A model generated the notes under the pieces. It had not been told where the DNA came from. It searched no databases and worked only from the letters and a program-made list of their open reading frames with translations. Both the position numbers and the translations under genes were made by a program. Below are positions 3,831 to 16,416 of a DNA stretch of 32,000 nucleotides, in pieces. This DNA comes from Methanocella conradii HZ254 (lineage in GTDB: Archaea; Halobacteriota; Methanocellia; Methanocellales; Methanocellaceae): contig NC_017034.1 of NCBI RefSeq assembly GCF_000251105.1, forward strand, positions 505,350 to 537,349, in the 5' to 3' direction. Positions within the stretch are counted from its first letter, which is position 1, and every line of letters begins with the position of its first letter.

Positions 3831-4142
3831 ATGTCTTTTGAGGATGCCATCAGGGCTATACAGGGCGGCGTCGTGATAGACTTTGAGGTTTCGCCAGGGG
3901 CCGGGGTGACGAGGGTTCCATGTGGCTACAACGAGTGGCGAAAGCGTATCGAGGCCAGGCTTAGGGCACCCCCCGAGAGGGGCAGGGCCAACGAGGAGCT
4001 GATGGTAGCGCTTTCCCGGCTATTCAGGGTGCCCCGGGCCAGCGTCGAGATCGCGTCGGGCGTGGCGAACGGTAAAAAGTCAGTAAAAATAAGGGGCATC
4101 ACAAGAGAAGACGCCATAAATGCGCTCAGGGGTATGCTATGA
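3831..4142 (+). CDS. DUF167/UPF0235 (YggU-like) family protein
   Basis: The ORF runs 3798..4142. The ATG at 3831 gives about 103 aa, the usual family length. GRANEELMVALSRLFRVPRASVEIASGVANGKKSVKIRG matches the conserved DUF167 core pattern (G.AN.eL...Ls..l.v....v.i.sG..s..K.v.i). Confidence 0.7.
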   Translation: MSFEDAIRAIQGGVVIDFEVSPGAGVTRVPCGYNEWRKRIEARLRAPPERGRANEELMVALSRLFRVPRASVEIASGVANGKKSVKIRGITREDAINALRGML

Positions 4143-4561
4143 TGGACGAGCGTGAGCGCCTGGCGGAGATTCAGGCCATCCTGGACGAGCTGGCGAGCAG
4201 GGCGGCGGAGGGCGCGGTCATACTGGTCGAGGGGCGGAGGGATAAGGCATCCCTCGAGGAGCTTGGCGTGAAGGGCAACATAGTCATGACCTCCCAGAAG
4301 CAGCTTTTCAACCTTGCGGAGTGCGTGTCCAGGCAGCACAAGGACATAATAATCCTATCGGACTGGGACGTGCGTGGCGATGAGGTGGCTCGGAGCGCTG
4401 AGGCCTTCCTCAAGTCAAACTGCGCCCGCCCTGACGTTGAGATAAGGAGAAGGCTTCGCCTCTTGACCCAAAAGGAAATCATGGACGTCGAGAGCCTGTA
4501 TGGCTACATGGAGCGGTTAAAAAGTCAATGCATTACTAAACAGGCAGGCACGCGCCGATAA
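4139..4561 (+). CDS. Small Toprim-domain protein (archaeal UPF0292 / RNase M5-like family)
   Basis: 140 aa. It has the Toprim glutamate in ILVEGRRD and the DxD motif in LSDWDVRGD. Its start overlaps the upstream stop as ATGA at 4139-4142. Confidence 0.7.
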   Translation: MMDERERLAEIQAILDELASRAAEGAVILVEGRRDKASLEELGVKGNIVMTSQKQLFNLAECVSRQHKDIIILSDWDVRGDEVARSAEAFLKSNCARPDVEIRRRLRLLTQKEIMDVESLYGYMERLKSQCITKQAGTRR

Positions 4562-4935: not shown

Positions 4936-6264
4936 ATGGAAGAATCTGACACTACAAAGTACGTGATTCACGCTCATATCAGTGCTGAGGGCGTCGTCGA
5001 GCGCCCGGACGTGGTAGGAGCCGTGTTCGGCCAGACGGAAGGGCTACTGGGCGCCGATCTGGACCTGAGGGAATTGCAAAAGACGGGGAGGATAGGCCGC
5101 ATCGAGGTGAACATAACCTCCAAGTACGGCAAGTCGAGCGGCAATATACTAATACCCTCGAGCCTCGACAAGGTGGAGACGTCGATACTGGCCGCCGCCC
5201 TTGAGACCATCGACAGGGTCGGCCCGTGCATCTCAAAGATATCGGTCACCAAGATAGAGGACGTGAGGTCCTCGAAAAGGCAGCAGATCATCGAGAGGGC
5301 CAAGCACATATTGACGGCCATGTTCGACGAGACCGTGCCCGAGAGCCAGGAGCTCACCGAGGCGGTCAAGTCGGCCGTGAGGGTCGAAGAGGTCACCTTT
5401 ATAGATAACCTGCCGGCCGGCCCGGATGTGCTCGACTCGGACGCCATCATAGTGGTCGAGGGGCGGGCGGACGTGCTTAACCTTCTGAGGGCTGGCATAA
5501 AGAACGCCATCGCAGTCGAAGGCACCAACGTGCCGCAGCTCGTCGCCGAGCTGAGCAAGAAGAAGACCGTGACGGTGTTCACCGACAGCGACAGGGGCGG
5601 AGACCTGATATTAAAGGAGCTCCTCCAGGTGGCTGACGTGGACTACATCGCCAGGCCCCCTGAGGGCAAGAGCGTGGAGGACCTGACCCAGAAAGAGATA
5701 ATAAAGGCCCTTCGCAGCAAGGTGCCCGTGGAGCAGGTCGTCGAGGTGCCCCAGCGCAGGCGCAACAAGCAGCAGCAACAGCAGCAGGAGGCCGCCAGGG
5801 CGGAGCAGAACGGCAAGCATGATGCCCAGCAGCGCGAGTACCAGCGGCCCGAGCGGCCTGAGCGGGAGAGGGGCGAGACGCCCCGCCGCAAGAGCCTCCG
5901 CCGCATGGAGGAGCGCCCGGAGAGGCGGGAGCCTCCAAAGGAGCAGGAGCAGCAGCCCGAGGCAAAGAAGCCCGAGCCCAGGGAGGCCGGGGAATTCGCC
6001 GAGATAATGAAGGACCTGGCGGGCACGCTGAGCGCGAAGCTGCTCGACGCCAACAAGAACGTCCTGCAAAAAGTTGCGGTCAGGGACCTGGCCAACGTGC
6101 TCAAGGAGACCAATGGCGAGGTCAAGAGCGTCGTGTTCGACGGCGTAATTACGCAAAGAATGCTGGACATCGCGGCCGAGAAGAACCTCGAGTACCTGGT
6201 CGGCGTCAAGATGGGCAGCATCGTGAAGCAGCCCGCCAACGTGAAAGTTATAACCACGGAATAG
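4936..6264 (+). CDS. dnaG: Archaeal DnaG-type primase / exosome-associated Toprim protein
   Basis: The N-terminus [51 protein letters not shown] is the conserved archaeal DnaG N-domain. The Toprim motifs are IIVVEGRAD and FTDSDRGGD. Confidence 0.9.
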
Positions 6265-6754: not shown

Positions 6755-6793
6755 CCCATTTTATATATGGCTAGTTTCATAATATGCATGCTC

Positions 6794-7249
6794 ATGTCAA
6801 TTATAGGTTATGAGGGCATCGCGGCCTTCATTAAGGGTAGCTATCCTCTCGGCTCAAGGATTGTGGAGGTGGGGGTAGGCCAGCACCCGGAGGTCGCGCA
6901 TCTCCTGCAAAACGACTTCGACGTCATATGCACCGACATCACGGAATCGGGGCCGGAGGGCGTGCGCTACGTCAAGGATGACATATTCAAGCCTGACATG
7001 GCATTATATAAAGGCGCGTCGCTCATCTACTCGATACGGCCTCCAGTGGACATTCAGGATGCCATGGCCTCGGTGGCAAAAAAAGTAGGCGCAAGCTTGC
7101 TTATTCGACCCTTTTCATCCGAGCGCGCTGACCTGAAAAAATACTTCAGGAGCTTTAAGGTGATCAACTACCAGGGCGCGGCCTTTTACGTTTACAATGA
7201 TGGCTATCGTCCCTGCTATCCTCAGCCGCCTTCATGGCAGCCTCCCTGA
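6794..7249 (+). CDS. UPF0146 family protein (Rossmann/methyltransferase-like)
   Basis: The ORF runs 6767..7249. IVEVGVGQHPEVAHLL looks like a GxGxG nucleotide-binding loop, and SIRPP is conserved in UPF0146. The start is uncertain: ATGs lie at 6767, 6788 and 6794. The TATA-like TTTTATATAT at about 6759-6768 favours a leaderless start at 6788 or 6794. Confidence 0.55.
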   Translation: MSIIGYEGIAAFIKGSYPLGSRIVEVGVGQHPEVAHLLQNDFDVICTDITESGPEGVRYVKDDIFKPDMALYKGASLIYSIRPPVDIQDAMASVAKKVGASLLIRPFSSERADLKKYFRSFKVINYQGAAFYVYNDGYRPCYPQPPSWQPP

Positions 7250-8861
7250 CGCTCGTATAAATACTCTTATTGTAAATGCAGAACCCCTTGAACTTCATGG
7301 CTATAGCCGATAGCTGCTCCGGGGACATGAACCTGGTCTCGAATCCAAGGTCTGAGGCCATCTTCTTACCCTCCGGGGACCAGGTGCTCACCACGTATCC
7401 CTTTTGGACGTTGCCAATTGTGCAGCTAAGCGTGCACTCCTCGCCATGCCTTGAAATTCTATATAATGGCTTAAGCCCGTCGCCCCCGAAGCAATACGAG
7501 CCATCGCCAATCAAAATGTACTCCTTGCCCAGCACCGAGCACTCCCTGGCGGCGTCGATGGCCATATAGGCTGGATAGCCCGCCCCCAGCATTAAATAAA
7601 AATTCCTGCACACATCCACAGCCGCCTCCTCAAGCACCCTGTAGAACGTGGCAACCCCGCATGCCGACCCATTATCCACGAGCTTCGCCGCCTCAGCGTG
7701 GCTGGAGCACGAATTGAAGAAAAACATGGGCGTATTATTCTCCTCAATGTCCCTCGCCTTCGCGAACCCGTCGCGGCATTTAAACCCCCTCTCATCGCAA
7801 TGCCCTATAAGCTGTATGATGTCGAATCCTCTGGCGAAAACGCGGGAAAAGCCGGAAACGTCGAGGCCCCAAAAGACCTGCATGGCTGACGCCGCATCGG
7901 ATAGGGCCTCTATCACCACGTCTACCTCCTCCGACATGTCGGCCTCGTTACAGATTATGCCCACCCTTACCTTCTTCTTACGAGGGTATCTCTGCGAGTT
8001 CATGAAAGCGCGCGGGGTAGCTTTAACAGCATCAACCGGATATCCCTCAGAAAACCATAGCTGGGAGCGCGCAGGCATTAACGATGGCACCACTACAGAG
8101 CGCTCGCCCTTATCTACGCCAGGGAGCGCCACGCCCTGCCGGCCAAGAAAACCGTTGACCGACAGCGATACAAGGCTCCTCTCAGTCATAGGAGAAGAGC
8201 GAGGAGAATATATGGCAGATAGCGAGTGCAAAAGGTAAGGGAGCGCCTCCACGCTCTCCGGAACAGGGTCGAGGTACGCCGCCATATGCCAGACGGGAAG
8301 CTCATCCAGGTTAGGACCCGCGTCATGATAAAGGAGAAGGCGCTCATCCGGCCGCATGTAAAAAACGTCCACGGCCGGCCTGCCGAGGGCCTTTCTGACG
8401 TCCAGGCCATTCAGGGCTCCGCCCGAAGCCACCGCATATCTCACGGCGCAATCTAAGTAGAAGGTCCGCCGCAGCATATCCCCCATCCAGAGCTCAATCT
8501 CAGGAAAATTCGGCAGCACGATGCGCCCTCCAGAGCCTAGCTCAATAAATGCCGCGCCATCGGCCTCCAGGGATGCTCCGAGGTAGTAGGCGAGCGTCGC
8601 TGCCGGGTATAGAAAACGGTAGTCTGGCGGCAGGTGGAATGAGAACCGTTCCCTCTCTACCGCCCTTTTATCAAAAGCGACATCTGAGACCCGGATCAAT
8701 GGTGGCGGTCGCCTGTATAATGGGTTGCTCTTCTGGGGGCTATTTAATCGCCCCGCCGTGCATATCGTTGATAGGCATCTGAAAACGTCTTCGACATCCC
8801 TTGAAGTATATATAACGCCACTCTGGCCTGACATCGAAGGACCATACCCACTTTCATACAC
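7164..8861 (-). CDS. Hypothetical protein with a C-terminal CHAT/caspase-like (His-Cys dyad) peptidase domain
   Basis: 565-aa ORF with a GTG start at 8861; the first ATG is at 8834. Residues about 297-440 (nt 7542-7973) read VRVGIICNE...FDIIQLIGHCDERGFKCRDGF...TPMFFFNSCSSHAEAAKLV..GSACGVATFYRVLEEAAVDVCRNFYLMLGAGYPAYMAIDAAR. This follows the CHAT pattern: hfaGHg..g..l.dG, then lvvLsaCeS, then G..svva....v.d.aa..f...fY..l..G.....Al. I did not recognise the N-terminal ~295 aa. Confidence 0.55.
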   Translation of the reverse strand: MYESGYGPSMSGQSGVIYTSRDVEDVFRCLSTICTAGRLNSPQKSNPLYRRPPPLIRVSDVAFDKRAVERERFSFHLPPDYRFLYPAATLAYYLGASLEADGAAFIELGSGGRIVLPNFPEIELWMGDMLRRTFYLDCAVRYAVASGGALNGLDVRKALGRPAVDVFYMRPDERLLLYHDAGPNLDELPVWHMAAYLDPVPESVEALPYLLHSLSAIYSPRSSPMTERSLVSLSVNGFLGRQGVALPGVDKGERSVVVPSLMPARSQLWFSEGYPVDAVKATPRAFMNSQRYPRKKKVRVGIICNEADMSEEVDVVIEALSDAASAMQVFWGLDVSGFSRVFARGFDIIQLIGHCDERGFKCRDGFAKARDIEENNTPMFFFNSCSSHAEAAKLVDNGSACGVATFYRVLEEAAVDVCRNFYLMLGAGYPAYMAIDAARECSVLGKEYILIGDGSYCFGGDGLKPLYRISRHGEECTLSCTIGNVQKGYVVSTWSPEGKKMASDLGFETRFMSPEQLSAIAMKFKGFCIYNKSIYTSVREAAMKAAEDSRDDSHHCKRKRPRPGS

Positions 8862-9099
8862 TATATCTGCTCCCCGCTCAGACTCATGGTTTTCAAACCC
8901 AGCTATAGCATCCTATCGCTCTTAATACTTTCTATTTTGAAATTTCTATTACTATCCTCCATGTTTGCCCCTCATAGCAAAACCTATAAATAGCAAGAAC
9001 GGGTTATAAGAGAATCCGCCGCCTGGGCTGCAATGCAAAAGCTTGTGGCAAAGGACGGCGATATATAGCTAAAGCATCCTGGAATGCAAAACCAGGGAT

Positions 9100-9116
9100 G
9101 AAAAACTATATATATG
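9100..9116 (+). promoter_or_regulatory. Candidate rRNA operon promoter (BRE/TATA); further TATA-like boxes lie upstream
   Basis: GAAAAAC-TATATATAT at 9100-9115, about 220 nt upstream of the 16S 5' end. Other TATA-like boxes are at 8985-8992 (TATAAATA), 9004-9011 (TTATAAGA) and 9061-9068 (ATATATAG). Confidence 0.35.
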
Positions 9117-9335
9117 AAAGACAGAGTATGTATGATTCCCGAACATTTCGGGAACTCAGCCACAGTCCGCTCATACGGCTTGACCCTGTGTAACAAACAC
9201 GGGATGAATTGCCGCTCTAAGGCTGTGGCAAATATGAGGATTCGAGGGGCGCACCTTTTTGGTGTGGTCGCGATTCTGATGTTGTTTGGTTGGTTGTTCG
9301 AGTAGTCTTTGTTTCTTGGTTTGTGGTGTGCGATA

Positions 9336-10808
<1,473 letters not shown>

Positions 10809-14313: not shown

Positions 14314-14437
14314 TTTTGGCGGCCAAAGCGGCGGGGAACCACCCGGACCCACACCGAACCCGGAAGTTAAGCCCGCCCACGTACCAGGGAGTACTCGGGT
14401 ACGCGAGTCCCCGGAAAACCTGGAACGCCGCCAAACC
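14314..14437 (+). rRNA. rrf: 5S ribosomal RNA
   Basis: The terminal helix pairs TTTGGCGGC (14315-14323) with GCCGCCAAA (14427-14435). Internal conserved blocks are CCGAACCCGGAAGTTAAGCCCGCC and GAGTACT. Confidence 0.9.
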
Positions 14438-16300: not shown

Positions 16301-16416
16301 TTTATCGGCAAAAGTGGCGATTTTTCGACCACACCGAACCCGAAAGTTAAGCCCGCCAACGATCCATCGAGTACTAAGGTATGCGAGTCCTTGGGAAAAC
16401 GGAACGCCGCCAAACC
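16301..16416 (+). pseudogene. Degenerate second 5S rRNA copy (5S-like pseudogene or orphan)
   Basis: Collinear with the 5S gene at 14314-14437. Identical blocks are CACACCGAACCCG, AAGTTAAGCCCGCC, GAGTACT, GCGAGTCC and GGAACGCCGCCAAACCA. Several helices are disrupted without compensation: helix I is TTATCGGC against GCCGCCAA; ACTAA replaces the ACTCG that pairs with CGAGT; and the helix II/III region is shortened. Confidence 0.6.

Follow-up and report, generated by a model that had tools for sequence, protein, structure and literature searches.

Proteases of the CHAT and wider caspase-like fold act as decisive switches in very different settings: separase works in the cell cycle, Craspase and SAVED-CHAT serve immunity, and DdvA acts in the release of a sigma factor. 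Here we describe a gene of the archaeon Methanocella conradii HZ254 whose product is a caspase-like (CHAT-type) cysteine protease of the cytoplasm that carries an uncharacterised N-terminal domain. The gene lies in a stretch of 32,000 nucleotides (NC_017034.1, positions 505,350 to 537,349; hereafter the window, from whose first letter all positions are counted). The original prediction for this window, made from the letters alone, described an orphan 565-residue protein with a CHAT/caspase-like His-Cys domain, framed it in terms of prokaryotic conflict systems, and proposed profile searches, AlphaFold modelling with Foldseek, and a neighbourhood analysis as checks.

A caspase-fold core with a conserved His-Cys pair

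The reading frame and its protease core are laid out as follows.
7164..8861, minus strand: whole open reading frame (ORF), 565 uninterrupted codons from the GTG at 8861
7482..7994, minus strand: caspase-hemoglobinase-fold (CHAT-type) protease core, residues ~290-460
7800..7802, minus strand: candidate catalytic His354 in the motif IGHCDERGF, right after strand 348-352
7707..7709, minus strand: candidate catalytic Cys385 in the motif FFFNSCSS, right after strand 379-383

The frame is open throughout, as first described, and the translation confirms the positions given for His354 (in LIGHCDERGF) and Cys385. The true start may instead be an ATG at nucleotide 8834 (residue 10), which yields the 556-residue form of the protein database; residues 1-13 are disordered in the AlphaFold model.

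Queried singly, the protein has no family match in Pfam (hmmscan, E<=10) or NCBIfam, and the Pfam CHAT model (PF12770) matches nothing in the whole source genome, so that the link to CHAT needs homologues or a profile. Ten of 31 homologues match PF12770 (best E 3.6e-7), four of the 31 weakly match Peptidase_C25, and one database homologue (P0052) carries a precomputed PF12770 assignment. When a profile of the 31 sequences is run against the PDB sequences it retrieves 8tl0 ('CHAT domain-containing protein') with an E of 4e-5. In this alignment IGHCDERGF pairs with FIGHGTALGV, His354 falling on the H of FIGHG, and FFNSCSSH pairs with LNACCTHE, Cys385 falling on a Cys of LNACC. By these sequence comparisons, CHAT homology goes undetected at the level of the single protein and is detected at the level of the family and its profile.

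Modelling agrees with this picture. An AlphaFold2 model from the 31-sequence alignment has a mean predicted local distance difference test score (pLDDT) of 88 and a predicted template modelling score (pTM) of 0.89, and its core has a caspase-hemoglobinase fold. In Foldseek the top hit is the activated SAVED-CHAT filament (E 5e-9), ahead of gingipain R, separase, Csx29/TPR-CHAT and MALT1, and caspase-7 is also among the structural matches. With the full model, weak matches to AfAgo/PIWI (E ~5e-4, TM-score 0.13-0.16, root-mean-square deviation (rmsd) ~19) were treated as noise. In the canonical layout of clan CD a His and then a Cys each follow one of two adjacent strands, and the conserved dyad takes just these places in the core.

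The two residues are near-invariant. In the 90 family members taken from genomes on which all our residue counts are based, His354, Cys385 and N383 are each kept in 89, and G353, G359, C362 and S387 in all 90, despite an overall identity of 27-40%. So little change at such identity is what a functioning active site would be expected to show, and we predict a peptidase activity that depends on the dyad. The CHAT/caspase-like His-Cys domain of the original prediction therefore stands: profile and fold similarity are both found and both residues are conserved, with the CHAT similarity emerging from the family though the single protein has no Pfam match.

One long-branch Methanocellaceae homologue (L088, G006:C33:304051-305691) is the sole exception for both His354 and Cys385, carrying Arg and Asp at the corresponding positions (QFIGRHNAQG and FFLCTDSS). 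Its active site may be inactivated or, as aligned, shifted in register.

An N-terminal domain specific to the family

7974..8822, minus strand: family-specific N-terminal alpha/beta domain, residues 14-296
8700..8741, minus strand: best-conserved loop of this domain, SPQKSNPLYRRPPP, residues 41-54, with S45, P47 and R50, taken from invariant alignment columns
7992..8291, minus strand: third lobe of the domain, residues ~191-290, taken from structural alignments

Both tblastn and alignment show residues 14-296 to be conserved at each of the 90 loci, with S45, P47, R50, Y93, R141, W191 and P275 invariant or nearly so. The loop SPQKSNPLYRRPPP is a candidate site for the binding of a ligand or a partner. 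The domain has no match among Pfam, NCBIfam or PDB sequence models, its profile returns nothing from the PDB sequences at E<=10, and in the ESM Atlas it meets only clusters of unnamed archaeal 'hypothetical protein'. Folded alone it reaches a pLDDT of 86; its best Foldseek match in the PDB (glutathione S-transferase-like, E 0.06, TM-score 0.14) was dismissed as noise. Comparison of the three lobes with one another by hhalign reveals no sequence repeat. Sequence searches thus leave the N-terminal region of about 295 residues as unassignable as it first appeared, and the proposed structural check succeeds in part, with the full model matching caspase-fold proteins and the N-domain alone lacking a credible match.

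Alignments of the model to RgpB, Kgp, separase and Csx29 all start at residue ~190-200. Since they begin there, the third lobe would pack against the protease core, and it pairs with the part of the gingipain, separase and Csx29 chains that precedes their active caspase-like cores.

C-terminal domain, short form and localisation

7203..7481, minus strand: C-terminal beta-rich domain and final helix, residues 461-553, from the secondary structure of the model
7164..7249: 86 nt in which the protease gene and the convergent UPF0146 gene (6767-7249, plus strand) overlap tail to tail

The alignments to RgpB (1cvr) and Kgp reach only residue ~490 of the model, partway into the C-terminal domain. The overlap with UPF0146 covers the C-terminal tail of the protease, which is poorly conserved, basic and disordered.

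Typical family members are of ~700 residues and open with an extra beta-rich domain of ~140 residues. The source protein and two relatives from the same genus (548-565 residues) represent a short form without it, and the DNA upstream of the gene shows no trace of the missing domain. The source genus has lost this domain.

None of the 90 members has a signal peptide, an N-terminal hydrophobic segment or a convincing transmembrane stretch, and the family maximum in Kyte-Doolittle 19-mer windows, 1.7, is located inside the folded core. The protein is therefore cytoplasmic, unlike gingipains or the CWB2 proteins of the cell wall.

Breadth and phylogeny of the family

Far from being an orphan, as originally described, the protein belongs to a large family. 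A word-indexed protein search gives 52 homologues, down to 26% identity and all unnamed or called 'hypothetical protein'; a search across prokaryotes, with each species represented by one genome, gives 364 related stretches; and the N-domain profile, run against 1.84 billion representatives, gives 640 clusters, 614 of them at E<=1e-10. The best 80 of the 364 stretches, on which our locus and neighbourhood comparisons are based, come from Methanocellaceae (38-40% identity) and from many Halobacteriales genera (27-34%). Most of the 150 clusters listed (of 640) have proteins of ~680-740 residues with the N-domain at ~140-440, and the shorter proteins among these 150 resemble the short form or fragments. 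Among the matches listed, the N-domain is seen solely in this architecture.

Methanocellaceae and Halobacteriales account for all named matches, none of which bears a name that denotes a function; a Halorussus homologue, for example, is labelled 'hypothetical protein' by the Prokaryotic Genome Annotation Pipeline (PGAP). The family is unnamed in Pfam, NCBIfam and PGAP, and our literature searches on CHAT proteins in haloarchaea found no paper on it. The kind of protease is known; its architecture (leading beta domain, three-lobed domain, CHAT core, beta domain) is unnamed in the libraries that we searched.

In a sample of 30 relatives, 10 of the 14 genomes from the same family carry the gene, as do both genomes of one other family; it was not found in the 11 remaining families. 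It is absent from three of the five same-genus genomes, those three being only 70-75% complete.

In a FastTree phylogeny, with Shimodaira-Hasegawa-like support only, the family splits cleanly into one Methanocellaceae clade and two haloarchaeal clades. The two haloarchaeal clades are paralogous, and the whole architecture is conserved in them and in Methanocellaceae. One of the two (43 rows), with a glyA/TbsP/YcaO context, largely tracks taxonomy; the other (33 rows) has variable contexts. On the chromosome of Haladaptatus pallidirubidus, two copies of the family gene (L024 and L029) are identical and lie ~550 kb apart, which points to a recent duplication that included it.

Genomic context in Methanocellaceae

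8862..9335: divergent intergenic region between the protease gene and the rRNA operon, 474 nt, with A/T-rich TATA-like elements for both directions

The gene is single-copy in the source genome (one complete contig of 2,378,438 bp) and unremarkable in composition. Upstream in the window, the plus strand carries genes for PHO4, an amidohydrolase, a CDF transporter and a DUF167 protein, then two Toprim ORFs of which the larger is DnaG-like; between these and the protease gene lie a GNAT gene (minus) and then UPF0146 (plus). On the far side, a 16S-tRNA-23S-5S operon starts at 9336 on the plus strand, divergent from the protease gene. The placement between a housekeeping gene and the rRNA promoter is thus correct, the neighbours being UPF0146 and the leader of the rRNA operon.

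A second complete genome of the genus (G005) has the same gene order and orientation, with a convergent UPF0146 overlap of 35 nt, and three genomes of the other Methanocellaceae genus keep the DnaG-GNAT-...-gene-rRNA block. In that genus (L001 8001-9647, L003, L009) the gene is co-directional with the rRNA operon, whereas in the source genus it is divergent, as if the protease gene alone had been inverted. The context is core chromosome, in the order DnaG-GNAT-UPF0146-protease gene-rRNA, and is syntenic across Methanocellaceae.

PADLOC finds nothing, and CRISPR, CBASS (cyclic-oligonucleotide-based antiphage signalling system), gasdermin or other defence genes are neither adjacent in the window nor recurrent across the 80 loci; no linkage to a type III CRISPR, CBASS or gasdermin module, or to a TPR or SAVED sensor domain, was found. 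Given also the housekeeping and rRNA neighbours, the fixed synteny and the single copy, the conflict-system framing is unsupported. The proposed neighbourhood analysis returned synteny and no recurring defence gene.

Several smaller observations concern this region. Pieces of the window occur in only four digester metatranscriptomes, and three short contigs from these lie inside the gene (7150-7300, 7321-7479 and 8301-8467), too little to settle its expression, start or strand. In the rRNA leader (9023-9330, plus strand), high-depth metatranscriptome contigs begin at ~9023, downstream of a TATA-like element at ~8985, which fits an rRNA promoter there; two more TATA-like elements are at ~9062 and ~9108. 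A second, weak 5S rRNA match (16301-16415, plus strand; 38.5 bits against a gathering score of 38) lies ~1.9 kb past the operon's own 5S (14315-14436). The Toprim ORFs are at 4139-4561 (140 residues) and 4936-6264 (442 residues, DnaG-like), both on the plus strand and separated by a gap of 370 nt with a GC content of 42%.

Haloarchaeal contexts

Across the 80 loci the recurrent neighbours are glyA, TbsP, YcaO and DUF7504. The 43-row clade has a conserved chromosomal block of glyA (on the opposite strand), the protease gene, TbsP and YcaO, and in 20-odd haloarchaeal loci the TbsP and then the YcaO gene follow the protease gene on the same strand. No Methanocellaceae locus has the block, and a search for TbsP across the source genome found none.

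One copy in the 33-row clade is plasmid-borne, with an IS5 transposase and a PD-(D/E)XK nuclease gene as neighbours. At least 12 loci of the 33-row clade (including L015, L030 and L075) have a DUF7504 gene directly upstream, and 4-nt start/stop overlaps between the two genes in three loci suggest a two-gene operon in this clade. The similarity of DUF7504 to KaiC is weak (E ~0.2). An obligatory partnership with DUF7504 in Methanocellaceae was considered and rejected, since DUF7504 occurs in genomes without the protease and is missing from three protease-bearing genomes; in the source genome it lies 265 kb from the protease gene. This DUF7504/DUF7090 gene of the source genome (L092 1417-3485, G000:C1:777.7-779.8 kb) ends in a stop that shares 4 nt with the start of the next gene, a large ORF in which KaiC-like ATPase, small Ras/Arf-like GTPase and Roadblock/LC7 domains are combined, and this pair looks like a signalling operon.

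Proposed function and alternatives

We favour, with moderate confidence, a latent and signal-regulated intracellular CHAT-type protease with a cell-autonomous role in regulation or stress response. It would be a soluble cytoplasmic clan-CD cysteine endopeptidase with His354 and Cys385 in its caspase-fold core, and would probably be held latent, as in separase, Csx29, SAVED-CHAT and DdvA. It is by analogy with these, as with every characterised CHAT protease, that we infer latency, domain gating and the rest of the mechanism beyond the active site. Binding of a ligand or partner to the N-terminal module, perhaps through the invariant R50, Y93, R141 and W191, would switch the protease on, and once active the enzyme would cleave a specific cellular protein, or a few of them. 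A role in regulation or stress is favoured by the synteny, the presence of just one copy and the lack of defence partners.

The same evidence bears on the possibility, which we consider unlikely, that the protein is an anti-virus effector of the abortive-infection type. Here the N-domain would sense an infection cue and the CHAT domain would cleave host proteins or a toxin precursor, on the model of Craspase, SAVED-CHAT or gasdermin-activating proteases. That the closest relative in both sequence and structure is the SAVED-CHAT defence protease would suit such a role, as would the variable haloarchaeal clade, with its IS5-associated plasmid copy and duplicated genes, and the patchy distribution within the genus, though the three genomes that lack the gene are incomplete. 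However, an effector of this kind sits poorly with the empty PADLOC result and the lack of adjacent or recurring defence genes, with a fixed position by the rRNA operon across two Methanocellaceae genera, and with a glyA/TbsP/YcaO clade that largely follows taxonomy and a gene of ordinary composition.

The genes trailing the protease in 20-odd haloarchaeal loci would be explained if it were a maturation or processing protease of a YcaO/TbsP peptide-modification pathway, with the Methanocella copy an orthologue parted from its partners. Yet the block is missing from the other haloarchaeal clade as well as from all Methanocellaceae loci, and TbsP from the entire source genome, and we regard this as very improbable. 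Least probable to us is a non-catalytic pseudo-protease, a scaffold or binding protein that retains the caspase fold. In its favour are the altered pair in L088 and the pseudo-caspase domains common beside active ones in separase and Csx29; against it, at least 89 of the 90 members, whose identity is so low, retain each of His354, Cys385, G353, N383, S387 and G359. A signal-regulated intracellular protease remains the reading that we prefer.

Significance

According to a 2012 paper, archaea had been excluded from the debate on caspases because gene homologues were lacking; the paper reported high caspase-like activity in Haloferax volcanii and no gene homologue for it (PMC3615174). Members of the present family exist in Haloferax species (L018, L034 and L080), where a conceivable link to that activity could be tested. 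A bolder version would make the family a clade-wide archaeal 'caspase', an intracellular protease gated by a ligand, whose new three-lobed N-terminal sensor responds to metabolism or stress. In haloarchaea it might account for the Haloferax volcanii activity and be regulated by the translationally coupled, KaiC-like DUF7504; we consider this version decidedly doubtful. Haloferax has a well-developed genetic system, so the family's substrate and trigger could be tested there, and a result could bear on the old report of haloarchaeal caspase-like activity. The family comprises ~640 sequence clusters, has all its named matches in two archaeal lineages and carries an unmatched sensor-like domain. 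For the source stretch, the gain is a correct re-annotation of a 'hypothetical protein' as a member of a large unstudied CHAT family, not a new system.

Comparison with known systems

The nearest described protein, SAVED-CHAT (8tl0), belongs to type III CRISPR and CBASS-like signalling. Our family differs from it in having an N-terminal module other than SAVED and an extra C-terminal beta domain; the Foldseek alignments that fit well (rmsd 3.2-4.2) span only ~200 columns, and no cyclic-oligonucleotide synthase or CRISPR locus lies nearby. Separase, Csx29 (the TPR-CHAT protease of Craspase) and the anti-sigma factor DdvA differ in their regulatory parts, which are HEAT or TPR repeats or a transmembrane sensor, and for their partners securin, Cas7-11 and a sigma factor we identified no counterpart. 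The triple CWB2 trefoil of Clostridioides difficile Cwp6, Cwp8 and SlpA, a module of three tandem repeats with the Toprim fold, belongs to wall proteins, whereas our family is cytoplasmic.

The gingipains RgpB and Kgp (clan CD, C25) share with the family the placement of a C-terminal domain behind the protease core, where its final ~100 residues take the position of the gingipain Ig-like domain. Identity to them is only 9-10%, and the combination of a Pfam Peptidase_C25 match with a secretion apparatus that characterises gingipains was not found. Gingipains are secreted, with a prodomain and a C-terminal sorting domain, whereas the family has neither signal peptide nor transmembrane segment, and the signal at the sequence level favours CHAT over C25.
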